DNA from: Psammoneis japonica
Taxonomy: Eukaryota
Direction of reading: 5' to 3'
Assembly: GCA_008632985.1 (NCBI GenBank)
Contig: QPGO01000328.1
Span: 1-53,784 of the forward strand
Length of the DNA: 53,784 nucleotides
Each line of letters begins with the position of its first letter. The stretch's first letter is position 1. Of this stretch, positions 1 through 43,109 are shown piece by piece. The notes beneath the pieces are model-generated. The model searched no databases. It was not told the DNA's origin and saw only the letters and a list, made by a program, of their open reading frames with translations. A program made the position numbers and the translations under genes.

Positions 1-722
1 GAGGAAGAGCGCACATGCGCCATTGTGTGCCAAGGATCAGCAAAGTCTGGCGGACAGTTGACAACGATGAATGCAACAAGGTGTGTCGCTTCAATTCATT
101 CGTGTCAGATGTCCCATCACAATGAGAGCATCAATGTGGATGCAAATGACGACGATTCTCTGCATCGCTGCTTGGTTGCTCAGGTGAATGTCTCTCACAA
201 CAACATTGGGGGAGACGGGCCACATGACCAGCACAATCTGGATGTCCACCCGGATTGTGCCGAGTGGAAACGGGTGCACACACTGTCGACCTTGAGTCGT
301 GCATCGACTGTCACGCCCGAGATGCTCTCCAAGAGGTGGAACATTGGCCTGATGGCCACCCAGAACACCTGACAGTGACAACCCAGGCAGGGGTCTGCAA
401 TGTCAAGATCTTGGATTGCATGAGCTCTGGGTTCACGCTCAAGGACAGAAGTGTCTGCGAGCCGGAGGAACACTTGGGCGCCCAGATCAGAAAGTGCCAG
501 TTGTCTGACTTGGAAAGCAACTCATGCTGGGCCATGTCCTCTGACCTTTGTGTGAAATGGGCATTGGCTGATGTTGAGTTGGAGCTCAAGAAAACTGACA
601 GGCGTCTTCCGACAAAGGCGTTGAGGCCCTTGAGCTCAGGACACAGGCCTGAACTGGACGGCTGGCCTGAGTTGAATGCCAAAATGGCCAACCGTCATCA
701 AGGCTTTGTTGGTGTGCTCCAA
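1..722 (+). mobile_element. Ty1/copia (CoDi-like) LTR retrotransposon pol remnant, internally deleted
   Basis: TPEMLSKRWNIGL..TQNT/LTVTTQAG resembles the pre-integrase region. It is joined directly to RT C-terminal motifs EPEEHLGAQI, WAMSSDLCVK, PLSSGHRPELD and RHQGFVGVL (expected EYLG, YVK, GYRPELD, RYQ). Confidence 0.8.
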
Positions 723-724
723 GT

Positions 725-1098
725 TGTTTGTTTTTCTTGAAAAGACATGTTTGTTTTTGTCAAAAAGACATGTTTGTTTTCCTTGAAACAACATGTTTGT
801 TTTCCTTCCTTGAAATGACGTGTTTGTTTTCCTTGAAAAGACATGTTTGTTTTCTTTGAAACAACATGTTTGTTTTCCTTGAAATGACATGTTTGTTTTC
901 CTTGAAATGACATGTTTGTTTTCCTTGAAAAGACATGTTTGTTTTCTTTGAAAAGACATGTTTGTTTTCCTTGAAAAGACATGTTTGTTTTCCTTGAAAA
1001 GACATGTTTTCTTTCCTTGAAATGACATGTTTGTTTTCCTTGAAAAGACATGTTTGTTTTTCTTAAAAAAACATGATTGTTTTCCTTGAAAAGACATG
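725..1098. repeat. 23-bp tandem satellite, array 1 (consensus CTTGAAAAGACATGTTTGTTTTC)
   Basis: About 16 head-to-tail units with a 23-bp period (e.g. TTGAAAAGAC at 971 and 994). Confidence 0.95.
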
Positions 1099-1123
1099 CA
1101 TCTGGGACGCCAACAATCTGGGT
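1099..1123 (+). repeat. Left terminal inverted repeat
   Basis: CATCTGGGACGCCAACAATCTGGGT; the reverse complement of 14933-14957 is CATCTGGGACACCAACAATCCAGGT. Confidence 0.85.
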
Positions 1124-1391
1124 CTGACTGTCTGCCATGATCTGGGTGTTTCTTGACTTTAACGCCAGATCATTGTCAACTTACAAGCCAATTCTCTCCT
1201 CAAATGTGATGTGAGAACTGTGTGAGTTTATGGGCTTCTAAAACCCAAATTGCTTCTCACTTTTAAGTGAGATCATTCCTTTCACATGATGCTGACCTGC
1301 GCCCCAATTAACATTTGGGGTTTCTCGTTCTTTTAACACAAATGTTGCTGCTTGCAATCCACCCTCCTTTTCCACCAACTCATCCTACATT

Positions 1392-2780
1392 TTATCTCTT
1401 TGCCATGTCGTTTTCAAATCCAAGTTCCCAATTGCCACACGTTGTTGCATCTAAACCGTGTCGCAGAATGCATTTTTTAATTTTCGCTTGTCCAGATTTT
1501 GTTGTTTGTTTCAAATTACGGTTGCGCACCAGTTTGGTTGGTGGCCATTGCGGCATTTGCTGCCGCTCCATTGCCTGCAGCCACTGCCTGCAATGGCAGG
1601 TCCTCTCCCATTGGCGCCGCCCATCCTTCCTCTCTCTCCTTTCTTTTTTCCTCTCTTTCGCATTTCTTGTTTTCCTCCTGAGACAAGTTTGTCTTCTCTT
1701 GCCTTCCATTCTTGAACCATGCACCAAATCCCTGGTTGTTCTCTCTGTCTTTCACCACCCACCGACATGGATCATTGTGCTTCTTGATCCCCTCCTTGCT
1801 CCATCCTTGGCTCCTCTTTGCCGATTCCCCCATCGCCTGTGCTGTGTGCTTTGCAGGAGCAGCGTCTTTCACAGATGGCTTTCTTCTCCTTGCAACATTT
1901 TCTTCCTTTTCCAATTTCTCTGCCGTGCCCTTCACCTTGTTGCAGCAGCTCAAGTGCACTGGCAGAGCAAACGCCTCTGACAAAACCGAAAGCCATTCCT
2001 GAAGCATGTCGGTTGTGCTTCTGCCAAACTGCACTTGTCCCACCACCGTCGGCACCACAGTTTCCAAGAACCACGCGCATGTGTCCTTGTCATTTCTTCC
2101 CTTTGTCAAATCTTTGCAAGCCACCAGCGATCCCTCTAAAGCAGCAACTGCACAGATGAAAGCAAAGGAAGAGACACCCATCCCGTCAGACAATCGCCTC
2201 CAACACAATCGCCGGCACGCACACATCTGCTCACCTGCCATTCTCCTCCCAATGTTGTCCTGCACATCATTCCTCTTTCAGTTGAGTTTGGTCCTGAGCA
2301 CCTCTTTGCATTCTTCCCAGAACTTCTCCGGTGAAGACGCCATGCTCCTTGACTCCTGCAGAACCAATTTCATGCAATCTCCTCCCACGGCGAGTTCATG
2401 ATTGAAGATTGCAAACTTGCGACATGGCCAAACACTCTCATTGATGACCTTTGTCAACATCGATGCTGTCAATTTCTTGCCCACCGCCGGCGCACGATCC
2501 AACACAAGACATCCCTCTGTGGGAGTCACCACCGAACTTGAATCGCCACCTGCATGCTGGAATCTGTTCAATTCCCCATGTTCATTTCTTTGTGCATGCA
2601 ACAAGGCCGCGTGGTGACTTCATGCAACACCACACAGATCAATCCAATGATTGTGTTGGTTCATCAGCAACTCTTTGTCATGTCCTTTCTCAATCTCACT
2701 TGCCGCTGGAAGTTGCACTTCCTCCCTCCGTTGCTCCTGTGAGAACCGCATCCTCCATTTTTTTTTACCTTCTCCATGGC
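1392..2780 (-). pseudogene. Transposon accessory ORF remnant, function unknown
   Basis: ORFs 2278..2604 and 1516..2265 read as one interrupted protein (EKFWEECKEVLRTKLN; AWFLETVVPTVVG...EWLSVLSEAFAL) followed by a charged tail. It resembles diatom DNA-transposon accessory proteins as I recall them. Confidence 0.4.
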
Positions 2781-3277
2781 TTCCTGTTGTTTGGAACTTC
2801 CGTCCTTTCCTGTTGCTTCATGAAAGGCAAGTTGCAAAATGAGCGCACTTTGCATGTGATTTTCTTGGTTTTGTTGTTGCTCGCGTGTCCTCTCTTGATT
2901 CAAACAGGTCTTTGTGTCATTTTTGAGTGCTCATTCCCAACCCCATGTTTGCACCTCCATTGATGTTTCACTGTTTTGAATTGTGCACCTTTGTCAGCCA
3001 ATCCAATGCACCAATGAAGATTGCAATGTCATTTGAATCAATGCCAAACAATGTGCCACATCTCTTTGCATTGATGCATGCATTGCGCCTCCTTCATGAT
3101 GCAACATCTGCTTCATTTGGCATGTCAAGTCATGTCAAACCTCCCATTTGTTGTCCCTGTCTCAATGGGTCATTCTCTCTGCTTCCCCGACACCACATCT
3201 CTCCAGTTGCTCTCTCTGTTGCCCAAATTATCCAGCCCACTTTAGTGTCCACTGAAGTGTGTTGTTGTCACTGAGAT

Positions 3278-4066
3278 GTGGTTGTCGTGAGTCATTCCCG
3301 TCATGGGAACGCATGTTCCCTCTGTTGCAATCACATGCCGCCAATTGATGATCAAATTGGTTGTTTTGCTGGTGGTGGTGTGGAATCACATGGTGGTGCG
3401 GCAAGCTTTGCCTTCTCCACCGAGGTCATTTGTAACCCCGCTCTCTTTGCGGCACAAATTCGAAGCCGTTTTAATTTCCTCGACATTGGTGGTGGTGTTG
3501 GCGGTTTTGCGATTGCCTGTCGTCTGTTTGTTCCTGCCTGCAATGCCCACAGCATCAAGTTCCACCGTCCCCGTCATGATCTGGGCTCTCAGTGGTGTGA
3601 TGCCATGTGGCACAACAACGCCAGTCGCTTTCCCACCCTGATCAATCAGGACTTCCTCTCCGAAGACGATGCTGTGCATCGGTTGCACCGTCTGAACAAC
3701 TTAAAGATTTTCTTCAACAACTGCAATGGGCAAATGCTTTTTGACAACAATGCAACACAGAACCAACTTGAGGAGATGCTGTCCAACAAGTGTCCTGAAG
3801 GTGCCATTGTCATTTCACTGGACGTGATGTTTTGTGTTTGTGTGCACAAATGGAGGCATGAATCATTCTTTGTTCCTGCCCATCCAGATGATCTGTCGTG
3901 GGGAGGCGGTGTCGATGGGCACCCACTTCACAAGTGCGCCAAGAAAAGAGACGATGCCATGGAGACAAGGCATTCCACTGGGAACGACCTGGGGTCTGAC
4001 ATCAAATGTGAATTCAAGCCTGCCAAAAGTGGGCAACTTTGCAATTCCCCTTTGTTTGTGATGTGA
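3278..4066 (+). pseudogene. DOT1-like (H3K79) class I SAM-dependent methyltransferase, transposon cargo
   Basis: DOT1-like motifs occur in order: ESHG (SYGE), FLDIGGGVG (FxDLGSGVG), QDFL (GDFL), IFFNN (IFVNN), PEGAIVISL (KEGxRIVS), LSWGG..PLH (VSWT..YY). There is no Tyr in 262 aa. Confidence 0.7.
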
Positions 4067-4191
4067 CTTTCGTCTGTGCAAGCAATGCATTGTCAATTGG
4101 CCCTTCACACAAACCTGCTTTTTACCTGCATCAACTTGCTGCTTCACCAGTTTTGCATTCCAACACCTGCTTGTTCACATGCTTGCCATGT

Positions 4192-5141
4192 TCACATGCT
4201 TGCCATGTCAAAATTGTGGACTGGACATGCCATGTTCCTTCGATCCGAGTTCGTTTTGTCAGGCAAAGCTTGGCGCGACATTCTTGCATCAAAAACAAAT
4301 GCAGTGCCTGCTTCTCCAGCCAGTGATTGTTTTTCCAAACCCAACCTGACCAAGTGTCTTTCACGTTCCTTCTCATTCAATGTCACCTCACAACCATCCG
4401 GCCATGTCTCAGCTGTGCCATTGTGCTCCGTTGCGTTGTTGAGGAACAGAAACATGGTGAAAATTTTGTCACCAGGTGACAATTTGGTTTCCACGCAATC
4501 GCAATGAATTTCCCCTTTGACCAGAAGTTTGATCTTGAACGTGAAGCAGGAGCATTTGCTGCTGTGTGTCGGGACATCTTTCTGCTTGAATCACCTGCCA
4601 GGGGAAAGCCAGGAATTAACTCCAACATTTTCTCTGCCAACCCAATGCCTTCCGCCTTGTCCTTTTTGTTGATGGCAAACTCGCCGACAAAACGGTGTCC
4701 TTCCTTCTCTCCCTCACCACTTGGTGCCTTGTTTGCCAGTGTTGTTGTCTTGTTGAGCAGGGGTGGTGGTGTTTTGAATTTTTGCAAGTGGCCTTTTTTT
4801 CTTTCCTGGTGCTCTTTTTCTTTGGACCCCGCCGTCTCACTCTTGACGACATGAGATTTCATTTCGCCCGGGTGTGTCAGCAACTTGCCATGTTTCTGGC
4901 ATGACGTTGTTGGCCAACGGGCAAATTTCTGGCATCCGTTCACAGAACACTTCTGCGCCATTCTCTGAAAATGCCTGTTCTGCCAAATCAAATGGTGCCT
5001 GGTCTTTTTCTTTAAGTGGAGCAGACCCAATCCAGCGAAAGTCTGCACCCATTGCTTTCCAACAAAAACGGCTTTCTTGCTAAATGTGTGTTGCCAACGG
5101 CAGTCCATCTGTTGTGTGCACCACAGATGTTTTTTTCGCAA
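4192..5141 (-). pseudogene. Zn-finger + 2OG-Fe(II) dioxygenase (PhyH-like DSBH fold), transposon cargo, frameshift near 4515
   Basis: The frame of ORF 4192..4494 extended upstream reads KGEIHCDC (HxD). It continues TMFLFLNNATEHNGTAETWP and GEAGTAFVFDARMSRQALPDKTNSDR (distal His position reads Arg; 2OG-binding Arg present). The N-terminal frame has a CSVNGCQKFARWPTTSCQKHG C-x4-C..C-x2-HG finger. Confidence 0.6.
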
Positions 5142-5228
5142 ACAGCCCCATGTGATGTGTTGACAATGGCAGTCTGTCTGTCGGGTGCACCACAGATGTT
5201 TTTTTCGTAAACAGTCCCATGGGATGTG
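5091..5228. repeat. 69-bp tandem duplication
   Basis: CACAGATGTTTTTTTCG occurs at 5122 and 5191. The copies differ at GCAAAC vs GTAAAC. Confidence 0.75.
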
Positions 5229-5954
5229 ATCTTTGTCGATCCTGTTTGCTGCATGATCTCATCAAATGTGTCATCCCAGCCATCTCAAAAGCATGGAAAA
5301 CAATTTTGTTGCTCACAATCCTGTCAGTGATCTTGTGAGATGTTTTCACATCCCCACAGCGGCAGACACAAAGGAAAAGCTGCCATCCACTGCACATTCT
5401 GCACCACAAACAAACTCATTTGGAATTTTGCACATGACAGACAATTGCAAATGACAGGCATTGCTTTTTTGGCAATGCACCTGTCTGTCAACAGAGCAAT
5501 TTGGCATCACTTTTTTGTTGTTGCAACCATGTGTTGACAAAGCAATTTGGCATCACTTTTCCATTGTCAAACACATCTGATGACAGAAGAATTTGGCATC
5601 AGTTTTTTGTTGACACGTGTGTCTGTCAACACATGCCTTTGGTGCCACTTTTTTATTTTTGCACTTGACGCTGGCCTGTGCAGCATCGTGACATGAAGTG
5701 CATCTCCCGCAGCAAACCACATTCTCCCGAATCTTGTCCAAGTTGCTGATCAACTCATGTTGAGCAGCAAACAGATGACGTTTGGGTGACTCTGTCTCTT
5801 GTCCTCTGTGTCCTTGTCATTCCCTTTGCAAAACAACAACCTCAAAATGATCCCACCCCAAAGAATGCTGCCCAATCCCTTGCCTGTTAGGCCACGTTGC
5901 TGAAATGGAACCGACAAATCTCTTTTTCGCCTGACACATCGTACTTCTCTCCCA

Positions 5955-8900
5955 ATGACATTCCACCTGACTCAACCTGCAGTGTTGACCAATGATCCAT
6001 CTGGCCGTTGTCCCCCACCAATGCATCTGGCCCCGTTTGGCATAGAAAACAGCCTTGACACCAAATTGAGGCCACATTGTTCTCCCACACTTTGGGCAAA
6101 TGAACGCGGTCATGTTCATTTGTCACTCAAAAAAAATGGTTTGACAGATCACTTGATCCATGGCATCATGCTGATGATGTTTGATGCAAAAATCTTTACA
6201 TTCGAGAGCAGTGGGAAGAGCAATGTGTGCAACCCAAACCACCTTGGTGAATTTGCAAAATGGCCAGTGCACCCAAGCCACATTAGATTGGCTTTGAAGG
6301 AAGCCACCCTGCCAGAGCTGGCTCGACGAAAGAAAAAAAGGCATGCAAAAAAATCATTGATGCTTGCTGCTTCCAAAACAAAAAATGCCAAAGATCCACA
6401 GCGGCGCAGGTGAGGGATTGCATCTTGTGCACCACCTCCAATTCCCATCTGTTTCTCACCTGACAAAATCATTGTTGATGTTTCCTAGAATGACACCCAA
6501 GCTGAAGGTCCAACAATTGCAACTGGTGTCGGCTCCTGTGTGGAAAGTGCAAATGACAATGACAATGACACAACATGGGTGGAGACGGATGTCATGGATG
6601 ACAAACAACAAATTTGGGCTGTTGCAGACAGCGAAGAAGATTTGCTGGCAAGGGATTTCATCTGTTGTGCTGCTTCCCTTTCCCATCTGTTCCCCACCTG
6701 ACCAAGTGCATGTTGATGTCTCCCAGAATGACAGCAATGCTCAAAGTCAAACAATCACCACCGGCATCGACTCTGTTGAGGAGGCTGCCCATGACAACGA
6801 CAATGACTCTACATGGGTGGAGACAGATGACATGGTTGACGAACATCCAATTGATGCAAGCAGATTGTTGGCAATTGGCATGGAAGCTGGTGGTGATTTA
6901 AATGGAGTGACAAAGATGCGCGCGACAGCATTCAAACTCAACGCCTGCTGGATCTTGGATGTGACGTTTGCACAATTGACAAGAGGATGTGCTGCACTTC
7001 CTCGCCAAAGCACACAGAGTGCGATGTTCTAAGTTTGCACAGATCAGCACAATGGAAGAGATTGTCCAAAGAGACAAAGTTCGATCACATTTGCTTTGAC
7101 TGCATGTGTTCAAACCCGGCCTGTCTCTTGGCTTCAGCTCCAAAGGGACCTTTTTTCTAAGACACACTCAGGGAGCTGCTGCGGTCGCTGACGGATGATG
7201 GGATGTTCTTCCTGCCTGCACACAATCTTGCATTTTCCAAGTTTTGGATGGAATGGAAGAAACAACGCATGTCGGAAGTGCACCCAATTCGCTTCTTGCG
7301 TGAAGAAGAGCAAGCACACAACGAGGTCCCCATCCTTCGAGATGAGGCACAAGCAGACATCTCTGCCTGCAGAAAGTTTTGTGCAAGGGAAGAATGCATT
7401 GAGGATTGTGAGTTAAAACATGAAGAAGTGAAATGGCTCACAGCAACAGATGAAGCTGCATTGGCGCATTTTCCAGATTTCGGGGGTCCAGTCAAACACA
7501 TTGGATCAACTAGAAGAAGAAAGGACCCTTGCCATGCACCAGTTTTTGCCGGTGACAACTGTGTGTTTTGTCCAACATGCAGTCTCAAGAGACACGAGCG
7601 TTTTCGGCGATGCCCATGTTGCAGGCCAGCTCCCATCCGGAATGCTGTGCAGTTTGATCTTGACTACAAAGACGTGCCTGACTCAGCATGTGGGACAAAA
7701 AACAGCAAGAAAACCAGGGAAGAATCTCTCCTCTAGCAAATCAAACAGTGCAACGCCAATCTTGTCAGCTGTTGGAGGCAGAAGGACCAACCACATGGGG
7801 TTGGTGGCAAGAACTGGGGTTTGTTGTTAACACGTCCCAAAAGCATTGGCAAAAATGCGAACAATGAAAGAGAACTCAAGTGAAAATTCTGCCTGAAACA
7901 ACCTCACCGGAAGTCCAACAAGCTGTCTGACACGTTCGACAACAACATTCCATTCATTGAAAAACCAGGCAGGGCGGGAACGAGGTGTTCCCTTGTCATC
8001 CACTTCAAGCTGCGTGCAACAGCACATGGTGCAATGGGTCCGAATGCTTCAAAGCAAATGTGTCGGCACCTGCAAAGCAAGGCAGAGATTCTACATTTGA
8101 GTGCTGACCACCCGCACAGGGCAAGCGATCCAACTCGTCCATTCATTTTGAACCAAGACACAATGGAGGGAATTGCCGACAATGCCGTCTTCAGGTCGTG
8201 CAAGTTTGACAAAAGAATTCTTGGATTGGGTTTGTCAATGCAGCTCAGAGCCATTGTTGAACAGGGACTCAGCAGTGGGTTGGCAAGAGAGTTTTTACTT
8301 GCAGCAAAGTTTGACCATTCATTTTGAGGGACTGTTGCCAAAGATTTTGATGTGAGTGGAGTGATTGCTCAAGGTTGGAGCCACCATGGTGGGTCAGGTG
8401 TTGCAAGGCCTGGAATGACAGAAAAGGAAAAGGACCTCTCTCCGAGATGCAGACAGTGGGTTTTGCAACTGACCGTGATTTTGGTTCACATTGTGTGCCA
8501 AAAAGCTTTGCAGGGAACACCAAGGTCTTCCCAGGGAGAAATGTTGGAGGAAAGACGAAGGTTGTCTGAGAAATGCCAAGTCTGGTTGGGTTGCCCAGAA
8601 TGATTGCGAGGTGTGTTAAAGCTTGATGAGGCAGGATCTCACATTGCCGGTTTTGCTTTCACACACTTCGACAGGGAAAATGAGTGGGAATTCCTCTTGG
8701 ATGACATTGGCAACGGTGTTGTCTTCATTGATGATTGGCGGGATTGCAACATTGGCAAAGATTTGGTGGACAAGCTGAAAAGGCATTTGGCCCCCATCAC
8801 CAACACCACGTTCAACCATCTGTCGTACAACCGAGAGATTGTCGGAATTCAGTTACGAAAGCTGCTGTTCAAGATGGATTGTGAACATGCAAATGCCCTG

Positions 8901-10117
8901 TTCGAACAACTGGAATCCCTGACAGACAGCTTCAACCTTTCAACTGTGGAGAACAAAGATGACATTCAGTGCGCGACCCAGCATGTCAGGGGTCACCTGC
9001 AGCGATTTGACAGTGGCGACCACAAAGGCATGTTGGGATTGCTTGTTGATGAAGGCAAAGACAGAGACCTCCTCCTGGGATTGATCACCCACAGCTGGTT
9101 CAATTTCACATTCCACCATGAGGGGTGCGTTGCTTTTCACCACGGAGACAAACTGGCAGCATTTGTGGGTGTGGAGCTCAATGGTGCACACCTCTTGTTG
9201 CTCTTGTTGCATTGAGAGAATCTGCAAAACCCAAAAACAAAGAATCAATGAAAACTTTGTTGCAGAAAAATGAGACGGGATTGTTGCACCACCGACTGGT
9301 GTCAATGATGAAGCAATTGAAGAACAATGGTGATGTGAGCGGAATGACGTGTTCGACGTTACAGAGATTTCAACACATGGATCCTTCCTTGACCAACATC
9401 AAGGAGATGCGAATCTGCTTTGTGTTCATTTCCAGTCAATTCGATGGTCTGCGGGCAAAGGACACTGATGGAAGTCACGAATCTGCCAGGGAACTTTTGT
9501 TTTGTCGCGAAGCCAGGAAGAACAAACTGCCAGAGCAGTGGCTGCCAAGCACAAGGTTGGCCGATGTGCGCGGGGCTTTGACGATCCAATCGGCTTCCGT
9601 CATGGGACAAATCCCCCCTCAAAATGCAGCAGTGGTGTGCATGTCCAAGGGTGATTCTGGATTTTATCTGTTTGTCAACATGTGTGTTGTTGGGAAAGAA
9701 GCACATGAGAGAGGCGAACGGATCTCCTCATTGAAGGCAAGGGAAGTTGTTCAAAATGCAATTGAAGTTGCAAGAAAAAATGGTGGAAGACCAACTTGGG
9801 CCAAATGTGACCAACTGGGCTGCAGGGAATGTCGATCGATGAACAACAAGTTTTGCAAGGATCCACACTGCCTCGTGTCAAGCGATCGGGGTGTGTCACC
9901 CGTTCGCTCTGTGGAACATTCGACTGAGTCGACAAGCGGTCTGTGGCCCAATGAATCGGAGCACAGGGTTGAACATTTCATTTGTGATCAATGGCATGAT
10001 TTGTCAACTCATGTCGATGTTGGCTCTTGTGTCAAGTCAAAGCATGACTTGACAAAGCAGAAGGGTTTGCTCCAATTCCGAGAATCGAAACTGAGCGGGA
10101 CCAACCAGTGCTTTTAG
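5955..10117 (+). pseudogene. Degenerate plus-strand cargo ORF(s), unknown function, with Cys-rich (RING-like and Zn-finger-like) segments
   Basis: A chain of protein-like ORFs (7203..7736, 8034..8327, 8604..9215, 9125..10117) includes CVFCPTC...RCPCCR and KCDQLGCREC..KFCKDPHC. Confidence 0.35.
6440..6850. repeat. ~238-bp diverged tandem duplication
   Basis: CCCATCTGTT..CACCTGAC..GTTGATGT..AGAATGAC starts at 6444 and at 6682. The copies differ at CCTAGAATG vs CCCAGAATG. Confidence 0.7.
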
Positions 10118-10298
10118 ATGTGTCAGCATTCCATTGCTCTTCAATGTGCTGACTGACAGAAGTGGCAACATTGCTCTTCAATGCTTTTGCTGACAGAAGG
10201 AGCAACAATGAGTGGTGCCAACAGATGCTGTTGGACAGGTCAACACACCTTTTGCAGCAAACTCATTACGAATGTTTCCTTTTTCCCAAGGTGCATTG

Positions 10299-13200
10299 TC
10301 ATTTCTCCTTGTCTTGCTTCCTGCGTTTGTCTGGGTGAAGCTGGATCACTTTGTTGGACAGGAAACAATTCGGCCAGTCATTGTGTCTGTCTGTGACAAA
10401 CAACATTGAGCTCAAGTGTCCCAATGCTTCAACATTGTCTTCATTGCAGTTGTCAGGAACAAGGACAGAGAAACCACCCGCTGCCATTGCGTCTCTGCCA
10501 GCACACTGAAATTTTGGGATCATCTGAGACTCTCTGCCACGACCAACAATTGTTGTTTCAAGTTCCCAGTGCTCAACCACACCGTTGGAAGACTTGTCAC
10601 GCAACGTCTTTGTCTGTTTCTTGCATGACTGTCCTGTGGCAAGCGGCGTTGTTCCGTCATCAGCCAACACAAAACCATGGAGCACAAATGGGTGCCTTTT
10701 TTTCTGACTGGTTCCCTCTTCATTCAAGACCCTGGGTGTGTTGCACCACAACCCATTGTTGTTGCAATTGGGGTGTCCACACATTAAAATCCCTTTCTCT
10801 GGTGTGGCAAACTCCGAGCAAACAACTGCTTCATCACACTTGACGGAAAGTTCCTCCGTTGGCGACAACAAAAACTCAAGCAGGGTGGAGTCCAATTCTG
10901 CAGTTTCCGGGATGACACGGATCTTGTTGCTGCCTGAACACTGACAGCAAGTTCATGTGGTTCTGTTCACAACAAACAAGGGGTGCATCAATTTTTCTTC
11001 AGAGGAATTTACGCTCGCCTGTCCAACCGTGGAAGGGATGAGAAGGCTGTGTGCCTTCTCAAGAACTGCCATGTCATGCAGACGCACAATGAGTTGGTCC
11101 AAGAAATTGTCTGCACCCAGTGCAACCTGGCAAGTTTTTGCCGGAAGCTCAGCACAGAACTTCAGGTGACTCTCTCCAATCATGGCAGAGAAATTTGCAA
11201 TCTGGCCACAAAGGAAAGAGTCGACAACGAGATGCAGCACAGAGTGGAACTTGGCAGTCCAGAACAAACGAGTGTTCCTTGCACGACGAAGGCATGCTTT
11301 TGTCTTGAACATGAGCAAGACGACTCGGCACTTGAAATCCACCTTTCCTGTTTTTCCACAGAGTCCCTTTCCATGCAGACAAAACAAATGGAAAAGCAGC
11401 GCATGATGCAACAAGTCCAACAATTCATCGACTCCACAATCAACGGATTTTTCGGCTGTCGTTTCGTCATCTGCCATCTTCATAAAAGCTTGAGGAAGTT
11501 TGTTTTCTATTTCCGCACAGATGACAGTGCTTGGCAGTTTTGACTTGGTGAGCAGATGGTGCCGTCCATCCGCACACCTTGCAAAGTTGCCCCAATCATC
11601 TGCCGATTCAACAACAAGACCATGTGGTCCGGGTGTCGACAATTGTTCAGGTGAAGTCTCAACAGCCCGTTGTTTCCATCTCAATGATTTTGTTTCGTCC
11701 CATGCAATCTTCTGGCACAACAAAAAGCGATCGTTGTCTGGTTGCTTGGAAAATGGTTCCCAAAATTCAGAAAGGCCGTGACGATGCATCTGTTGCATCA
11801 CACAGTTTTGGTGATGAAGATCGGATGGGCCGCAGGCAACATCAGACCATGTCTCCTCTTTAGGAAGTGCAGCCGGCACATTCTCATCAACCTGGCTTGT
11901 GTTTGTTGTGCTGGTTTGTTCATTGGATGGTTCAACGGGCTCAGTGTCCTCATCTTGGGTTCACTTTCTGACGATTTGGTCAATTGTTCATCTTGTTGCT
12001 TCTTTCCTTTAAAGCCATCAGCCGTCTTTTTCTTTTTGCTGTCAAAGGATGGATCGCACCTTTTTTCCAGCAGTTTTCTACCAGCATGTGTGTGACCAAT
12101 GATTGCAAGTGCAAGAAGCTTTCCCATCTTTTTGTCACATGCAAGTTGACTGAGTGTGGAAAGTCCCCCATCAATTTGAATTCACGGGCAGTCACGTCTC
12201 TGACCTGGACGACAATGGGATGTGCAGAATGACTCAGATGCAATCCGGTCGCATTCCTCTTTCTGTTTGGTGGACATCTCTCCAATGATTGCCTCCATCA
12301 TTTGAGGGACAATGCCAGCCTCCAATGCATGCATCATGTCAGCAACGGTCATGCCAAATGCACCACATGGGTTGTCGCCCATGTCAAGTGGAAAGTGAGC
12401 ATTGTCCACTGCGTGCTGTCCAAACACTTTTCTCAAAATTTTGGAGCATGCAGTCATTCGGCGAATGAGGGATGAAGCCAGCTCAGTCTCAGCCTTTTTT
12501 TTGATGTCATTGCACGATGTTTCCGGGAAACGCTTTTGACATGCTGGTGCCAACGGCTGTTGTCATCCTCTGGATCTGGACCCAATGCAGCTGCAGCGAG
12601 CAACTCTGTGAAAGCTTGGTTGCAAAATTGGCAGACATGGCTCTTCCACAAATGCGTTCTTGATTGAGGATGTTCCCCAACAGGGAGTTGCAATGCATCA
12701 CAGCTCTGACATGGCGGCATTGAGTGCCTGTTGTTGCACGAACAATGGGTGGATTCGCCTGGCAATGAAGCAGACCATGGAGAGCCTCCTTGAGAATGCG
12801 GCGACAGTTGGCAACAACAAGGCACCCAAGCTTGTCTTTCTTGTCTTTCTTGTCCAAATTGGGTGTGAATCCAAGTGGACGCCAACAACGACAGTCACGG
12901 CATGCTTCCTCTTGAATCATGGTGAGTGAGCGCATTGCAGGCTCCATCCCGTGAGGATTGACCGCACCAACTCCGGTCTTGTCCGAGTGATTGACAAGGT
13001 GAATGTGAAAATCTGATGCCGTTTCCTTGGTGTTGGAGCAACGTTGTTGCCACTCGCCGTCACCCATGTCTTGACTTTGAGTGGACAATTGCCAGTCACC
13101 AGGACAATCCGGGAATGACATCTCAACACCGTCAGCCTGGCCAGCACTGGGATCCAAATCGCCGTCAGTGGGGGGTGGCACACAAGGTGACCAGACATCA

Positions 13201-14514
13201 TTTGGATTGACCTGCAACTTGGAAAGATCACGGAACACTGGCTTGGTGAAGAGATCCTGCAAGGTCTCGGTGAAACTGCAAACCGGAAAAGGTGGGGAGC
13301 GATGACATTTGGGTCCGTCCTTCTGTTGCTGTGTTGGATTGTTGCATTCTAGCATCACAGCAGCAGTGCGGGGGAGAGGAACATTGGGAAATGACCCCAG
13401 GAGTTGCTTCATCGCCACGGCGGTCGTGATGGGTGGCTTTGTCAAATCCAGTCTTTTTTCTGCATGCTCTTCATGCAAAATTCTCACCACTTTGTCAATG
13501 AAGTCAATTGCAACACCTGGCCGACAACACAAATGCAGCAAACGCACCATGGGTGCAATGCTGGGTGAGCAGACTGGAGGCACATCAAAATCCTCATCGG
13601 GTGCAACATCACGCGGTGGGCCAAGAGGGTTGTGTTGATCGAGGGAGGAAACAGGATCTTCTGTTGGACGGGAAATTGAGGGGGGGGCCACAACTGCCAT
13701 CGCGATGGTCGGCTCCAATGAACTCAGGAACATCCACAGGACTGTCCTCTCCAAGGGCGGACACACCATCATCTGCAAACAAAACAAATCGGCGGGCATT
13801 TTGGGAGGCTGCGCTGGCGGCAGCAGCATTGGCGGCTGAACGCAATCGACCAGAGCATCTGACGGAGGGTGGGCGCAGTCCACTTCTGGCAGAGGGAGGA
13901 CAAGCTGGAGAAGAATTGTCCGTTGGTTTGGGAGGAGATGGAGCTGGATTCCAAAGGACTTCGGGGAGGGGAGGAGGGGGTTCGTCGTCAGAGAAACCAA
14001 ACCCAGCAGGATCATCATGGTCATCCAGTGATTCATCGTCTGGAGGGGGAAGTGCATTGGTGGCAGCAGAAGATGCAGCATGCAGGCGAAGGGACATTTC
14101 CTCCTTTTCACGGCAGGGCAAGCACTTCTGTAGATGAAGGGCGACGTTGGAAAAGGGGACACGGCAATGGGGGCATTTGGGTTTGTTGGTGTTGGATCCA
14201 AGGGAGCCGACAGAGGCGGAATCCAGAGGATGAGAGGAAAGAGGTGTTCTGCTGGATGAAGAAGACAATTGGGCTGCATGGCACAGCTGTGTCAATGGGG
14301 GATGGAGACCAGATGCTGTGGTGCAGGGCCGAGACAGGTGACGCTGCACGTTGTTTTCAGAGTCAAGTCCATGTTGTCCACAATGAGGACAACCAAAAGA
14401 CTTGGTGGAAATGGCAGAACGGAGGCAGTCAGTTGTGATGTGCCTGCTGAGGCCACATTCGGAAAAGAAACCGGTTTGTTTGCACCATGGACAAACAAGA
14501 CCATCAGATGACAT
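10299..14514 (-). pseudogene. Plavaka-family transposase with N-terminal C2H2-like zinc fingers, fragmented
   Basis: ATG at 14514 (MSSDGLVCPWC) is followed by three CxxC..H fingers. Core motifs are NHSDKTGVG..EP..SLT..WRPLGFTP, DNAHFPLDMGDNPCGAFG..DMMHALEAG and WTAKFH..LH...CGQIANF..GESHLK..PAKTCQ. Confidence 0.75.
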
Positions 14515-14932
14515 GGCCGATGCACACAGATGAAGGAGTTGAGAAGAGAATCGAAAGGAAACAGCGGGTGCAGCAACAATCACTTGGGGACACAGTGAGG
14601 GCAGAAACACAGAGACACAACATGCAGATGGATGGGAAGGAAGGATGGAGTGGGCAGGGAGAGAAAATTGAGAAGACAATTAGAGTCTAGATTGATGGAC
14701 ACAGGCAGCAATTTTGATCCAGAAAGTTGATCAACACACAATCCAGAAACAAAAACAGAATTAAACACGCACACAAGGCTTGTCGGATGGGGGAGCAAAT
14801 GGTTGAATTGAGGAACACAGATGTTTGTTGTTGAACATTTCAGAAAAGCTGACTTGACAAATCAGCACGATCTTGGATTGAAGGGAGAAAATGTCGGGTT
14901 TTGTTTCAAGAAATCTTGACGGCCAGTGCGAC

Positions 14933-14957
14933 ACCTGGATTGTTGGTGTCCCAGATG
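14933..14957 (-). repeat. Right terminal inverted repeat
   Basis: The reverse complement matches 1099-1123 at 22/25. It is followed by the ATG duplication and the resumed satellite. Confidence 0.85.
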
Positions 14958-15584
14958 ATGTTTGTTTTCCCAAAAAAGACATGTTTGTTTTCTTTGAAAC
15001 AACATGTTTGTTTTTCCTTAAAAGAACATGTTTGTTTTCCTTGAAACAACATGTTTGTTTTTGTTGAAACGACGTGTTTCTTTTCCTTGAAATGACACGC
15101 TTCTTTTCCTTGAAAAGACATGTTTGTTTTTCTTAAAAACACATGTTTGTTTTCCTTGAAATGACATGTTTGTTTCCTTGAAAACACATGTTTGTTTTCC
15201 TTGAAACAACATGTTTGTTTTCCTTGAAAAGACATGTTTGTTTTCCCAAAAAAGACATGTTTGTTTTCTTTGAAACAACATGTTTGTTTTTCCTTAAAAG
15301 AACATGTTTGTTTTCCTTGAAAGAACATGTTTGTTTTCCTTGAAATGACATGTTTGTTTTCCTTGCAACAACTTGTTTGTTTTCCTTGCAACAACTCATT
15401 TGTTTTCCTTGCAACAACTTGCTCTTCGATTTCTTTGAAAGAACATGTTTGTTTTCCTTGAAACAACATGTTTGTTTTCCTTGAAATGACCTGGTTGTTT
15501 TCCTTGAAACAACATGTTTGTTTTCTTTGAAACAACATGTTTGTTTTTCTTGAAATGACATGTTTGGTTTCACTGAAATGACAT
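14958..15584. repeat. 23-bp tandem satellite, array 2 (continuation of array 1)
   Basis: Same unit and orientation as 725-1098, about 27 units. Confidence 0.95.
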
Positions 15585-15649
15585 CACAAGAAAGACAGCG
15601 CAGAACTTTCTCCACACTGCCCAGGCTCTTGTTCCTGGTTTCTGCTGCT

Positions 15650-17911
15650 CAATGTTGTTCAAAGTGCCGGCGCCACTCGGGAGCAAAGGATCTCCTGCCA
15701 TCTTTGCAGCATCCAATGGCAAGGCATCTGCCAGAGCAACATCCGACATGGGCAACACCTGCAGGTGCAAATGACAACAATTGGTCCGTCGGACCTCGCA
15801 CTGAGAAAAGAGTTGGGGCTGGAGTGCAGCATCCATGATGCACTGGTTGTTGTCTCATTGGAGAGGAAGGGCTCCAGAGTGTGTCAGGCAAACTTTCCCT
15901 TGAATTCTGCGCAAGAGTGCACTGACGGAAGCAAACCAACATGATTCCATGTGCGGGAGAACAGCATCTGCATCCCACAAGAAGCCCCCGCCTGTCCCCA
16001 AGTTCAGTTGGACACATGAGACTGCAATGTGCAGCAATTTGTGGGGTTGGTCCTCTCCCAGATGAAGATGTGTGACACCTCTGGAATGCTTGAGCAGCAT
16101 CTGCAATTGAGCAACTCCTTGTTTGATGTCTGGCAATCGAAAACCGCCACAGCCAAGAGCTTGTGGACCACACAAGATGAGTTGTTTTGTGCTTCAGTTG
16201 CACCCACATTTGGCAAATGTGACCCTCGTTGCTTTCTGTTGAGCGGCAAGCAACTCTTCAGGGAGAAAGGTCAAGTCAGTGAGAACACAGGTCATTGAGG
16301 AGAGATGACATGCATGGCAGCATCTCTGTGTTTCCGCATGATCAAGTGGACAAGATCGCTCTTGTGTTGGAGTTTCTTCAACTGAGTTTTCTGGGCACCA
16401 ATTGGAGCCAAGCAGTGTCCAAGGGTTTTGTGCAGAGCACAAGCTGAGAGAGTTGAGTGCCAGAGTGGGGACTTGGGCCTGTCCGCAGAGAAAATTTTGC
16501 CGCCAAGGTTTTTTCATGGTGAGGGCGAATGCATGGCTCTCCGCACTCAGTGAAATCCCACTCAACAGTGTGGAAAGAACACTTTGGCAGCTCAAGTTCA
16601 TGCCCAGCTGCACCCAGCAAATCACACCAGAGTTGATTGTCCTGTTGCAAAAAAAAGGACAGATCAAATGCACAAGGTTGAGGACTTGCTCGGAAGTCAT
16701 TGACTTGTTTGGACGCATCATCTGCACATCCTCGATCAAAGACTTGGATGCAAAATTGGCCGTCAGGGGTTTCAAAATGAGCTCCAATCACTCTGGCATC
16801 AAAAATGTCAAAAAAAATGGCTGCAGAGGGTGTTCCAATGCCACAGGGAATTTCCGCCACCTTGCCCTGTGCCGCACAGAGGCAAATCTTCTGTGTGGGA
16901 GCAACTCAGCTGGGCTGAGCCCAACAGGGTTTGCAGCCAGTGCCTGGCATGATGCAGAGTGCCCATGTTGACTTCAACAACTTGCAAGTGCACGCCGTTG
17001 CTCCAAGAGCAAAGTTCGACCAGCGTGGGAATGTTTCTGTCAAAGCAAGAGGTGCAATCATCATCGCTCATCAGCATTGTCTTTTGAGAAGCACACGACA
17101 TTTCTGACATCAAGTTCTCAAGAAACATGAAAGTCTGGGCAGAAAAAAATGAGTGGCATCCACAAATGCCGGGATTGCACATCCAACGGTGCTCCATTTG
17201 CTGTGCCAATTCTTGCCATTTTGCACTCGTGATGATTTGATGGTCTGCTTTGCACACGTGTGAGACCCGCAGTTGATGGATTTTGTTGTTCCCTTGTTCT
17301 TTAAAGATCGTCATGTTGACAATGTCTTTCCAATGGCTGTGCGAGCATCCCCACTTCAAAGCACAGTCAACGAGGTGAAGCCGTGTCGCAAATGAGGTTT
17401 GCTGTGCCTGGCCCAGGTGCAGTTTGGTTGGAGTCAGATTTCCTTGAGCGTCTTGATCTTTGGAGTGTGAATGAGGGGCATGCAGAGCCTTCCAATGGCC
17501 AAGATGTGGTCCTGATTTCAGCAAGGCAGATGTTGATTCAGGCCATGTCTTCAATTTAGACAACAAAGTGGTGGGAGACAAAGAATTGCTCACAGCTGGA
17601 GGTGTGCATTGACGGAGGTGCTGGACAAGCAACGAGGCAGCAAGATTCAATTGACTGGTGTCATGTTCCCCATTCAACATCAGCTCTGCCATGATGGTGT
17701 TCCCTTCATGCCCCAAGTCCACGGACAGGGGAGGGACAGCAGGAGGTGCACCTTTGGCCTGTCCAAAATGATGTTGACTCTGTGTCTGAAGTGCTGCTGC
17801 TGCATCCTCTGGAGTGTCTGCTGTCATCCAATGTTTGCATGTCTTGGATTGTCTTGAGGATTGGCTGGCACTTGAATGGTCTTGATGCTTGAATCTGCTT
17901 TCTCCTTGCAA
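15650..17911 (-). mobile_element. Non-LTR retrotransposon (diatom LINE, Ambal-like) reverse transcriptase remnant
   Basis: Motifs SGPHLGHWKAL, WKDIVNMTIFKEQGNNKIHQLRVSHVCKADH, DCTSCFDR, LCGTGQGGGNS, GCADD (YADD), QLWCDLL..GHELELPKC and CGPQALGCGGF..QG..LKH. ORF 16808..17911 has no Tyr in 367 aa. The clade name is tentative. Confidence 0.8.
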
Positions 17912-17939
17912 GCGTCAATCTTTCGGAGCACTCTCTTTG

Positions 17940-18600
17940 TCTCTTCTGCTTCCGCACATTGCAGTTTGCAGTGGAGACTGCTGTTGGATGAAAACACGCC
18001 AAGATCCAGCAGCCGGTTTGTGTGGCTGTTCTTCAGTCTTCCAGCCTTCCATGCTTGCTTTTGCGTGTCCAACCAATGTCCAAGTCTCTCTCCATTTTCA
18101 ATGTGAAATGGGGCACTTTTCAGCTTCTCTTGTGCAAAACGAAAAAATTTGAGAAGAGAAAACACAGTTTCTCAATGCTCAGCCAGAATGTCCCAATTGG
18201 CTCAGGCCTTTTTCAGTTGTTCCTGTTGAGAAGCGTCAATTTTCCTTTTCCTTGTGGCACCCCGTTGGTCATTTGGCCATTTTCCAAAGTTCTCCCCATC
18301 CTCTTTGTGGCCCCTTGGCATGTTGCAATGTCCCTCCCATTTTGTGAATTGCTTGAGAAGAGAGGGCATTGTGCCCCATTGATTTTCCCACAAGAGCCAC
18401 TCAACACTGGCCTCCTCAAGTTTTTCTTCTTTTTCAATGCCGAGCTTGCTGAGCTTGTGTTTTGTGGCCATTGGTTGTCCAACCAAATTCCAAGAGCAAA
18501 GCCATCCTCAGCACATTTGCTGGGAACATTGCATCTGCCTTCTCTCTCCAAGCAAACCAAGAGCAGGCTGCAAGCACAACACGGCGCTAATTTCAGCAAC
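17940..18600 (-). pseudogene. Helicase-associated (HA) domain repeat protein remnant
   Basis: Three HA-like units: EREGRCNVP..EDGFALGIWLDNQ; WEGHCNMPRGHKEDGENFGKWPNDQR; ENGERLGHWLDTQKQAWKAGRL..RLLDLG. Confidence 0.75.
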
Positions 18601-18702
18601 ACAGCATCATGGAAATGTGCTCTTTGTGCCAGAGGCATGTGTTTGTGAACAACATGGTTCGATGGCAGCACTGCCAACAGATGCTCTCTTTTTTCTTTTT
18701 TG

Positions 18703-19087
18703 CATGTTTGTTTTCCTTGAAATGACATGTTTGTTTTCCTTGAAAGAACATGTCAGTTTTCCTTGAAACAACACGTTTGTTTTCCTTGAAACGGCGCGTT
18801 TGTTTTCCTTGAAAAGACATGTTTGTTTTCCTTGAAACGACACGTTTGTTTTCCTTGAAAGGACATGTTTGTTTTCCTTGAAACAACGTGTTTGTTTTCC
18901 TTGAAAAACATGTTTGTTTTCCTTGAAAAAACATGTTTGTTTTCCTTCAAAGGACATGTTTGTTTTCCTTGAAAAGACATGTTTGTTTTCCTTCAAAGGA
19001 CATGTTTGTTTTCCTTGAAAAGACGTGTTTGTTTTCCTTGAAAGAACTTGCATGTTTGTTTTCCTTGAAAGAACTTGCATGTTTTCC
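18703..19087. repeat. 23-bp tandem satellite, array 3
   Basis: Same unit and orientation as arrays 1 and 2, about 16 units. Confidence 0.95.
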
Positions 19088-19544
19088 TCCCCAGGATGAC
19101 AAAATGTGTTGTCCATTGTGGATGAACAGAGTGACTGTGAGGCTCACACAATGGGCACAGATGGGAAGCTGAGCACTCCACGAGTGCCGTGGTGACAGGT
19201 CCACGCAGTCAACCAGCAAATGGGAGGCCACCCCATGCTGTTTTGTCTGAATGAGCACATGCTCTGGGCTCAATGCCCCACACTGCTGTGTCCAACACCT
19301 GTTGCACATGTTGGGAACTGATGTGTTTGCAAGTGTGACGCCATTTCCACCACAGCAATTCTCATTGTTCTCATTTTGGAGCAAATTTTCTGCATGCATG
19401 TGCAGAACCCAGCACCCTTTCTGCTGCTGACACCCATGTGGTTCTGCACAGCAACGAACAATTGCTTGTGTCATTTGTTTCATGCCCGCAAAATGGCTCA
19501 ACAACAGATCTTGGCTCTGACAAAGCGAGCAAATGCAGGTCATT

Positions 19545-20340
19545 GATTGAGGGTGCCCGCCCTTGGCTGAGGGTGCCCACCCTTGATTGAGGGCACACCA
19601 TGATCAAATTTGTGGCGGTGCATGTTTTGAGATTTGAGCATGCCGCAATCTTCATCCAAGGGAGGTGTTTTGTCTTTGCAGGTGTTTGAATCAAGATTCA
19701 GAGGACAGAGGGCGGGCTGCCAACCTGACACATGCGCTGGCAATTGTTTGAAAGTTCTGTGCATCCCATGGAGTCTGAGCTGAAACAAAATCTTGGCAAC
19801 AGCAAGGCACTTGAACAAAGAGTGTGCTCCTGTTCTCCACACATTTTGGCCCTCAAATGAGGGTGCCCACCCTCAATTGAGGGTGCTCACCCTTGACTGA
19901 GGGTGCCCACCCTCAATTGAGGGCACACCATGATCAAACCAAGGGCGACCCATGATTTGAGATTTGAGCGTGCCACAATCTGCATCAGAGGGAGGTGTTT
20001 TGTCTTTGCATCTGTTTGAATCAAGATTTGTGGGATGGGCTGCCAACCTGACATGCACGGCAATTGTTGGAAAGTTCCTTGCATCGCATGGAGTCTGAGC
20101 TGAAACAAAATCTTGGCAACAGCAAGGCACTTGAACAAAGAGTGTGCTCCTGTTCTCCGCACATTTTTGCCCTCAAATGAGGGTGCTCACCCTCATTTGA
20201 GGGTGCTCACCCTTGACCGAGTGTGCCTGCCCTTGATTGAGGGCATGCCATGATCAAAAAAAGGGCGGCGCATGATTTGAGATTTTGGTGTGCCATGATC
20301 TGTGTCCGAGGGAGGTGTTTTGTCTTTGCATCTGTTTCAG
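19545..20340. repeat. ~320-330-bp tandem repeat (about 2.5 copies) with nested 20-bp quasi-palindromes
   Basis: GGGCAyrCCATGATCAAA occurs at 19591, 19921 and 20241. Each is preceded by several TGAGGGTGCCCACCCTCAAT-like units. Confidence 0.85.
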
Positions 20341-29400: not shown

Positions 29401-29605
29401 TCCGCAACTTTCAACTTCAACATGCTGAGCTGAAACTGCCGCCGCCGTCACCCGTGTGCGCAAGTTGCCAAGCAGTCACCCCTGTGGCAGGGGAGCTGTG
29501 TGTGTGTGCATGGTTGTGCGCGCACGGCTTCGCCGTGTGTTGAGTTTTAATGTCAACATCCACACGAATGTGTGTGTTCCACAAGCAAAAATTCCTGTTC
29601 CACAG

Positions 29606-35373: not shown

Positions 35374-35963
35374 TGTACAGAGTAATAGAGTGATTCAAGG
35401 GAAGTGGGAAGTGTACCAGACAGAATTCAATGCCGGTATACGGATACGTGTAGCTCAGACTCGAGTCGAGAGGTAAAGAAGCCTTCGAAACAATCAATGA
35501 GAATTGCAGCAGCTTGCAACTACTGTATTGTGACACCAAAAGATAGTCGCCGTCCGTCCGAACTCAAGCGAATGACGACATCACGTTGCGCCATCTTTCT
35601 TGGTCCGTCATCGCGCATGATCTGGAAAAAACTCTCATTTACGTAGGTTTCTACGTAGCTTCAGTACCAGCTAAGCCATTGCGCGCGACAGAGTGGAGAG
35701 TGTTTCCCGCAAATTTTTCAGAGTTAGGAAGTTGTGCTGCTTCAACTTCATGTTGTCGCGCGCGAGCGCTCGTTCACAAAGTAAAAAGCACAACACACAA
35801 CATCTCGAAGTCGACGAAAGATCAAACGATCGTAGGGTCTAGAGAGAGTAGAGAGTAGAGTTGTTGTTGTTCTTGTGTTGTTACTGTCGTTGGGTTGTTT
35901 CAGAGTAGCGCGGTGTAACTTTACAGATAGAAATAGAGAGAGTTAGAGGAAGAAAGAGACGTC

Positions 35964-43000: not shown

Positions 43001-43109
43001 TGCACTCTGTGGCACTTGAGATGTTTTTTGCTTGCTCGCATGCTTTCTTTCTGTGTTTTCTTTGAGCCACAGGGGTGGAACTGGGTGCTCCACATCACAC
43101 ACACTTTGC

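Follow-up and report, generated by a model that had tools for sequence, protein, structure and literature searches.

A hypermutated DOT1-like methyltransferase gene as probable cargo of a Plavaka-like transposon in Psammoneis japonica

We analysed positions 1-53,784 of contig QPGO01000328.1 from Psammoneis japonica (this whole stretch is called the window here), in which a DOT1-like S-adenosylmethionine (SAM)-dependent methyltransferase gene lies at 3275-4066, between the terminal inverted repeats (TIRs) and in the left arm of a 13.9-kb transposon (1099-14957). On balance, the explanation that we favour overall is that this is a dead, full-length gene of the DOT1 superfamily, carried as cargo by a transposon of the Plavaka kind.

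Enzymes that act on epigenetic marks have been seen as transposon cargo in several settings, including TET/JBP in fungal KDZ and Plavaka elements, SET and N6-methylase in red-algal Plavaka elements, and VANC in VANDAL. Such enzymes are rare in transposons and informative, in that they show which host silencing routes matter. To our knowledge, DOT1 biology in protist lineages of this kind is barely known.

Results

The methyltransferase frame and its protein family

The gene occupies a stop-to-stop frame of 263 codons on the forward strand (3275-4063), followed by TGA at 4064-4066. An exhaustive phmmer search of 1.84 billion representative proteins with its translation returned 21 proteins at E ≤ 1e-3, six of them at E ≤ 1e-10, the closest having E 6.3e-20 and 37% identity. 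A leave-out profile, built on these 21 relatives with the window row excluded, matched the frame with E 1.3e-52, the next best match in the window and seven related transposase loci (described below) having E 2.8. Likewise, tblastn with the family relatives found one place in the window, which was the same frame. The translation aligns to residues ~30-220 of relatives of 222-245 aa and so covers the whole methyltransferase domain, indicating a full-length, intronless gene rather than a fragment. A further protein search (alignment A1) gave two members, both already known; a conserved-pattern search for related loci (alignment A3, which gave poor patterns) and a search of viral contigs with the relative P0001 found no relative.

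Homology is what makes the frame real, since an open frame alone is weak evidence in DNA of this composition. The surrounding 21-kb block holds 527 TGA, 31 TAA and 14 TAG stops in three frames, and among 200 first-order Markov simulations of it, 34% contained a frame of at least 263 aa (mean 0.415 per block); the real block has seven. These simulations favour a chance open frame in stop-poor DNA with accidental motif-like strings, but the phmmer homology and the leave-out profile match refute that explanation, and the confidently predicted fold described below also speaks against it, leaving it next to no probability.

Assignment to the DOT1 superfamily

The sequence-only reading of this DNA had proposed that DOT1 catalytic-core motifs occur in order in the frame, and we found them so: HGG at the YGE position, DIGGGVGG (motif I), the strand-2 acid position (occupied by Lys), DF and FFNN. 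The family alignment shows, in order, SHGG(E) at the YGE position of DOT1, D-x-G-G/S-G-x-G (motif I), (V/I)-E-(I/L)-D-x-x-R-H, P-x-L-I-x-x-D/S-F, L-K/R-I-F-F-N-N-F/Y-x-G, Q-x-x-L-E-x-x-L-x-x-x-C-x-x-G-T/S-I/V-V-V-S-L-D, W-x-E-E, D-L/I-S-W and K-Y-T-K. In the family consensus, iFfNNyg corresponds to IFVNNFA of DOT1L, and the window copy reads FFNNCNG there; both Asn residues (N148 and N149), near-invariant in the family, are kept.

Comparison of the family profile with Protein Data Bank (PDB) sequences gave H3K79/K76 methyltransferases as all of the best 20 matches (E 8.4e-9 to 2e-6), among them trypanosome DOT1A, a bacterial DOT1L type, human DOT1L and yeast Dot1p. After rank 20 came 2b25 at 3.7e-6, followed by matches at 3e-4 or worse.

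An AlphaFold2 model of the protein, made with a 22-row alignment, had a predicted local distance difference test score (pLDDT) of 79.5 and a predicted template modelling score of 0.79, with pLDDT above 90 for 138 residues. When it was compared with the PDB by Foldseek, all matches listed above rank 41 were Dot1/DOT1L (best E 2.9e-9), and rank 41 was TrmR. VIA-align, which is independent of Foldseek and was run on 48,161 representative chains, placed the bacterial DOT1L-type structure 9ne1 first (Z 19.9, 195 of 203 residues aligned, root-mean-square deviation 2.9, 15% identity) and yeast Dot1p (1u2z) second (Z 17.5, 214 residues aligned), the best non-DOT1 structures being Trm14 (Z 15.6) and TrmN (15.2). 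The predicted fold is thus that of a class I SAM-dependent methyltransferase, with DOT1 enzymes as the nearest solved structures. The proposed DOT1-like identity was borne out by Foldseek, the top two VIA-align structures and the profile matches, and the best structural matches were DOT1 enzymes rather than other methyltransferases.

Foldseek comparison with viral models (BFVD) gave no specific relative: a Hyperionvirus DOT1-domain protein ranked seventh (E 1e-5), amid generic methyltransferases. A viral origin of the gene is unsupported by this fold search.

Several results weigh against a close relation to DOT1 itself. Searched alone, the frame had no DOT1 match in Pfam at E ≤ 10, where Methyltransf_23 (E 0.084) was the sole match, nor in NCBIfam or PDB sequences. 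The Pfam DOT1 model (PF08123) matched 8 of the 21 relatives at E ≤ 0.1, leaving 13 without a match at that threshold, and its 23-bit cut-off was reached by three (33.2, 29.6 and 23.0 bits, the last exactly at the cut-off); for relative P0022 a score of 28.0 bits was obtained. Human DOT1L came only sixth in VIA-align (Z 15.0), amid generic class I methyltransferases. These comparisons place the family on a divergent branch within the DOT1 superfamily, and it would be premature to count it in the histone-methylating DOT1 family proper. That the frame is a relic of a DOT1-superfamily gene can be held with high confidence.

The family shares with DOT1, DOT1L and Dot1p (PF08123) the class I methyltransferase core, motif I (DxGxGxG) and the NN motif after strand 4. 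It differs in being very divergent, with HGG(E) where DOT1 has YGE, in being small (222-304 aa) or fused to a second methyltransferase-like domain (about 600 aa), and in having no nucleosome-binding tail; the window copy in addition has neither the strand-2 Glu nor any Tyr. The bacterial 9ne1 protein, the best structural match, is of similar size and matches the family profile with E 1.4e-8, but is prokaryotic and only 15% identical. In the ~600-aa relatives (P0002, P0003, P0008 and P0022), the second, C-terminal domain has weak MTS-type matches and is absent from the window. These long relatives also show a conserved middle stretch (YPVK..VEEPW), and their second methyltransferase-like domain carries the string FEFGAGKG.

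The substrate is a separate question. The enzyme may have had a DOT1-like fold and acted on another protein, RNA, DNA or a small molecule, its likeness to DOT1 reflecting shared ancestry of the catalytic core. This would agree with a best structure that is a 203-residue bacterial DOT1L-type protein rather than a nucleosome-binding eukaryotic DOT1, with tRNA methyltransferases close behind it in Z score, with a family that has no counterpart of the long C-terminal nucleosome-binding extension of DOT1L, and with a weak N6_N4_Mtase match in P0002 (E 0.005). Against this, H3K79 enzymes make up the best 20 PDB profile matches, and one of them, trypanosome DOT1A, is a small protein that acts on histones; the family also keeps the DOT1-type NN motif almost without exception. 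We consider a non-histone enzyme possible and rather unlikely, and regard a histone H3K79-type substrate as no better than tentative.

Inactivation of the window copy

The window copy retains motif I, DF, NN and both Trp residues. Position 95 is Glu in 20 of 21 relatives and Lys in the window copy, whose AAG codon, preceded by C, fits a GAG>AAG change at CpG. Cys221 stands where 19 of 20 relatives have Tyr, and its TGC codon fits TAC>TGC at TpA. Two more columns that are partly Tyr in the family read His (Tyr in 10 of 20) and Cys (Tyr in 7 of 20; FFNNC for FFNNY) in the window copy. The Glu at this strand-2 position, now Lys95, binds the SAM ribose in DOT1L structures. With this acid present in the family and lost here, the window copy is very probably catalytically dead, in line with the missense inactivation of an open, Tyr-free frame suggested earlier.

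The amino acid composition of the frame is skewed, with no Tyr, 16 His (6.1%) and 15 Cys (5.7%), while seven relatives of the protein have 2.0-5.0% Tyr, 2.0-5.9% His and 1.6-3.0% Cys. Because of the genetic code, no TpA>CpA/TpG transition can produce a stop from a sense codon: TAY becomes CAY or TGY, NTA becomes NCA or NTG, and at a codon border NNT|ANN becomes NNC or GNN, while TAA and TAG stops are partly removed. An open, Tyr-free frame is therefore the expected end state of TpA mutation and carries no information on selection.

TpA-directed decay of the element and its surroundings

Only three TpA dinucleotides are left in the 792 nt of the frame. The observed/expected ratio (o/e) of TpA is 0.06 in the methyltransferase gene, 0.03 in the transposase, 0.07 in ORF2 (the second large open reading frame) and 0.08 in the left arm, indicating that the gene decayed together with the element. 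For the whole element, o/e is 0.07 for TpA, 1.67 for CpA and 1.61 for TpG. The block from 1 to ~21,000 has TpA o/e 0.01-0.10, CpG 0.29-0.55 and CpA/TpG 1.5-1.8, and in the gene-bearing blocks of the window TpA is 0.60-0.64 and CpG about 1.0. Blocks nearly free of TpA at 1-21000, 24000-30500 and 40000-46000 (TpA o/e 0.01-0.10, CpA/TpG 1.5-2.15, CpG 0.17-0.56) alternate with normal gene blocks. By their dinucleotide ratios, the three blocks bear the signature of TpA-specific hypermutation, near saturation and joined by CpG loss.

Comparison of the window with copies in contigs of the DNA sequencing run X1 gave transitions at 1932 of the 2456 places that differ. CA<->TG double changes, such as arise when, once a copy has been made, the two strands of a single TpA are hit independently, were found at 2268-9, 6995-6, 8624-5 and 18408-9.

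A comparable process has been described in Bigelowiella natans, where integrated viral DNA is hypermutated solely at TpA, to TpG or CpA, and low-TpA genes are enriched in DDE and reverse-transcriptase domains (10.64898/2026.01.13.699255; this and the other papers cited here are quoted from the parts that were accessible). TpA-poor clusters rich in CpA and TpG are common to both systems. The window differs in its near-total depletion over blocks of 6 to >21 kb and in its additional CpG loss (o/e 0.49, against about 1.0 in genes), of which the abstract and Results of that study make no mention.

Termini, insertion and core genes of the transposon

The element has the termini CATCTGGGAC...GTCCCAGATG (CATCT..AGATG, of the 5'-CA..TG-3' type known from Plavaka) and is flanked by a 3-bp ATG duplication. 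Its 20-nt TIRs match at 19 of 20 positions, the single difference being a CpG/CpA position, and a pattern search allowing up to three mismatches found these two sites and no others in the window, where chance would give 0.02. The longest exact runs in the TIRs are 10 and 9 nt, and a seed-12 inverted-repeat scan missed them. At positions 21-22 the left arm has TG and the other arm CA, a pattern that a single ancestral TpA would leave if hit independently in each arm. Removal of the element and one ATG restores the 23-bp satellite unit, TTGAAA(N4)CATGTTTGTTTTCC. This is a textbook case of insertion into a 23-bp satellite with a 3-bp target duplication, and the satellite arrays at 725-1098 and 14958-15584 are halves of one array split by the transposon.

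Two core genes accompany the methyltransferase gene, both as relics. An intact counterpart is present in the metagenome locus L001, which has a transposase-like frame of 1302 aa and, in tail-to-tail orientation, a second frame of 1695 aa (4316-9400, minus strand), termed ORF2, a conserved partner of the transposase family. Residues 206-1301 of the L001 transposase align to window 13655-10308 (-), and residues 502-1366 of its ORF2 to window 6921-9188 (+), the main piece with E 2e-39 (tblastn), so that the two window relics are colinear with the intact element. A 594-aa window frame (12510-14291) matches the transposase relatives P0036 (E 4e-53) and P0037 (E 2e-43; 31% identity), and there is a weak zf-C2H2_4 match in 13612-14679. 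L001 ORF2 had no Pfam match and no usable ESM Atlas match.

Evidence for the transposase type comes from relatives of the window frame. No Pfam match to Plavaka was found for the window frames, P0036, P0037 or the L001 transposase, in a scan that covered 53 of the 114 window frames of at least 120 aa. P0044, which is 69% identical to P0037, matched Plavaka (PF18759) with 30.6 bits against a cut-off of 26.3, and other relatives among the ten scanned scored 26.0 (P0046), 22.4 (P0048) and 15.8 bits (P0057). In the ESM Atlas, 20 of 30 matches for the transposase were Plavaka clusters, with a top score of 0.96. P0037 and L001 both contain a CRAC string. The element is best regarded as Plavaka-like (CACTA/EnSpm-related), the transposase match itself being borderline, and we are fairly sure that the methyltransferase gene lies inside a transposon of this type. 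The claim that the gene sits within a TIR-bounded DNA transposon was upheld by the TIRs, the ATG duplication and the probable Plavaka-type transposase.

It is improbable that the gene belongs to another mobile element nested in the Plavaka arm, or that the TIRs do not bound a single element. Such an arrangement would suit the repeat mosaic of the 21-kb block, with its third satellite array and its degenerate TIR-like end at about 700-724, but the insertion site speaks against it, with an exact TIR pair, ATG duplication and restored satellite unit, and within 1099-6200 the methyltransferase gene has no credible inverted repeats around it (the best pair being 23 nt at 78%).

Regular cargo or a single capture

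The left arm is well represented in contigs of run X1, the one sequencing run found to contain this DNA; no RNA run was listed. On positions 1-20000, 10,621 contigs aligned at ≥80% identity, 2151 of them at ≥99% and 1689 under 90%. Summed depth was 3412 in the gene bin, 3344-4498 in the rest of the left arm, 1165-2008 in the middle of the element and 549-1022 in a flank. In 15 of the contigs, A replaces G at 3938, which would give the family-consensus Thr. Judged from these alignments, the left-arm segment with the methyltransferase gene is repeated and diverged in run X1.

The following observations weigh against regular cargo. Summed contig depth is no copy number, and one copy of the element was seen directly. 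No DOT1-like gene was detected in the seven related transposase loci by tblastn with 22 family members or by the family hidden Markov model; these loci are distant, being 39-58% identical to P0037, itself 31% identical to the window frame, and only L001 has both core genes together with enough flank to judge (~3.5 kb beyond ORF2). This L001 stretch shares nothing with the window left arm. Two relatives of the methyltransferase have named sources, one a diatom metagenome-assembled genome and one a diatom transcriptome, and their proteins, which stand alone or have two domains, show no link to a transposon. The gene therefore received a divided answer on its expected presence in sister elements, being absent from the related loci and yet part of a segment that is multi-copy in run X1. 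It appears not to be a core gene of the wider transposase family, and to be lineage-specific cargo.

The absence from the related loci, the unshared L001 stretch and the named diatom relatives would also fit a host DOT1-like gene that was taken up once by the element lineage, or by the ancestor of this copy, and remained an inconsequential passenger. This one-off capture is set against a gene that is full length and intronless, many diverged run X1 contigs covering the segment, so that it was copied with the element arm, and the long-term retention of chromatin-enzyme cargo by Plavaka elements elsewhere (10.1101/2025.02.11.637652; PMC12730594). We consider a single inconsequential capture a minority explanation. 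Whether the gene is stable cargo of a transposon lineage, rather than acquired once, is evenly balanced on its own, and cargo of a Plavaka-like element remains the account that we favour.

Other features of the window

Coordinates of the element and its parts are collected in the table. In the left arm, neither the 1519-2277 frame nor the 4386-5258 frame has a Pfam match. Strings in the latter (e.g. C-x3-GC-x-K-x-A-x6-C-x2-HG) resemble a zinc-binding, DNA-binding module. Between the left-arm frames and the start of ORF2 there are tandem repeats of a 46-nt unit (four copies, 5457-5660) and a 69-nt unit (two copies, 5087-5224).

Features of the transposon, its cargo and its insertion site (positions in the window)
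Feature	Position	Strand	Evidence
DOT1-like SAM methyltransferase gene, hypermutated relic	3275..4066	+	homology, predicted fold, substitutions
Left terminal inverted repeat CATCTGGGACGCCAACAATC	1099..1118	+	pattern search
Right terminal inverted repeat	14938..14957	-	pattern search
Target-site duplication ATG, left copy	1096..1098	.	junction sequence
Target-site duplication ATG, right copy	14958..14960	.	junction sequence
23-bp satellite array, left half of insertion target	725..1098	+	self-BLAST, sequence
23-bp satellite array, right half of insertion target	14958..15584	+	repeat comparison
Two open frames in the left arm, 253 aa and 113 aa	1519..2619	-	ORF lists
Cys/His-rich open frame, 291 aa	4386..5258	-	ORF list
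ORF2 relic, second large gene, broken into several frames	5904..10114	+	tblastn, tblastx
Probable Plavaka-type transposase relic, frameshifted, with N-terminal C2H2-like finger	10308..14679	-	protein matches, tblastn, Pfam

The third 23-bp satellite array lies at 18703-19088, and all three arrays have the same orientation. The degenerate TIR-like string CAACTTGGAGCACACCAACAA (minus strand) ends at ~724, as if a related element adjoined the array. A pair of 127-nt inverted repeats with 91% identity (29606-29732 and 31419-31544) bounds ~1.9 kb, possibly a small non-autonomous element. Tandem duplications or arrays are found at 43110-44488 (~700-nt unit), 52865-53465 (~100), 19546-20337 (~330) and 29826-30361 (~180).

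Host genes occupy long single frames at 32459-33460 (+; SOUL haem-binding, E 5e-32), 35937-37280 (+; Methyltransf_16 lysine methyltransferase, E 8e-20), 37599-39905 (-; FG-GAP repeat protein) and 49948-51483 (-; HMGL-like/homocitrate-synthase-type enzyme, E 2e-38, with a run of 98 N at 50155-50252).

Discussion

In the history that best accounts for these data, an intronless SAM-dependent methyltransferase gene would have been carried in the left arm of a 13.9-kb cut-and-paste transposon with two core genes, encoding a zinc-finger DDE-type transposase and a large second protein and arranged tail to tail. The element would have inserted into the 23-bp satellite with formation of the 3-bp duplication, and afterwards the whole element and its cargo would have been hit by TpA>CpA/TpG and CpG>TpG/CpA transitions. 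This decay would have removed all Tyr codons and at least two near-invariant residues, including the strand-2 Glu, without creating stops. By analogy with the TET/JBP and the SET and N6-methyltransferase cargo of other Plavaka elements, the intact ancestor may have been an active protein (probably lysine) methyltransferase that worked on chromatin at or near the element, to its benefit.

The closest known systems are other Plavaka elements with accessory genes. Fungal PlavakaB has 2-3-bp target-site duplications and CATCA..TGATG termini, and Plavaka is placed beside EnSpm/CACTA (Kojima 2025, PMC12730594). In the same source, the TET/JBP dioxygenases of Plavaka and other fungal transposons are proposed to aid escape from methylation-based silencing. 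The element described here shares with PlavakaB similar termini, a 3-bp target duplication, a transposase that is probably of the Plavaka type and cargo that would modify epigenetic marks. It differs in its protist host, in carrying a DOT1-like methyltransferase rather than a dioxygenase, in the second conserved 1695-aa gene, and in a transposase family that barely reaches Pfam Plavaka. Giant red-algal Plavaka elements of 17-19 kb carry accessory genes PAG1-3, of which PAG2 combines an N6-adenine methylase with SET, and have tandem arrays beside an accessory gene (10.1101/2025.02.11.637652). Large size, non-transposase genes and tandem repeats are shared with the present element; its cargo is DOT1-like rather than SET, the PAGs being compared by description only.

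A search of the available literature found no paper linking DOT1 to a transposon. In the accessible part of a survey of transposon-chromatin fusions, these involve mainly Chromo, PHD, SNF2_N and SET, and DOT1 is mentioned only in connection with giant viruses and prokaryotic roots; its Supplementary Table 6 could list a DOT1 fusion (10.1101/2021.11.30.470311). Epigenetic-enzyme cargo of large Plavaka/CMCT transposons is thus known, and what is new is a DOT1-type enzyme among such cargo.

The sequence-only reading had also suggested an element-encoded anti-silencing factor, on the premise that H3K79 methylation opposes silencing. This premise proved not to be universal. DOT1 genes have expanded in brown algae, where H3K79me2 accompanies repression (PMC13076208); the yeast-based premise is therefore not simply transferable. 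We regard an anti-silencing role as distinctly unlikely. The fuller proposal, in which a protist Plavaka lineage would encode a DOT1-type enzyme that marks its own nucleosomes against heterochromatin or TpA hypermutation, the window copy having lost the contest, is at least as doubtful. If true, such elements would use DOT1 for counter-defence, much as fungal elements are proposed to use their TET/JBP cargo.

The element provides a clean case of TpA-specific hypermutation that erases a transposon and leaves its frames open, which is a warning for gene callers. If the methyltransferase gene is true cargo, its DOT1-type enzyme would suggest that transposons and their hosts in a protist lineage contend over H3K79-type methylation or over some other substrate of DOT1.

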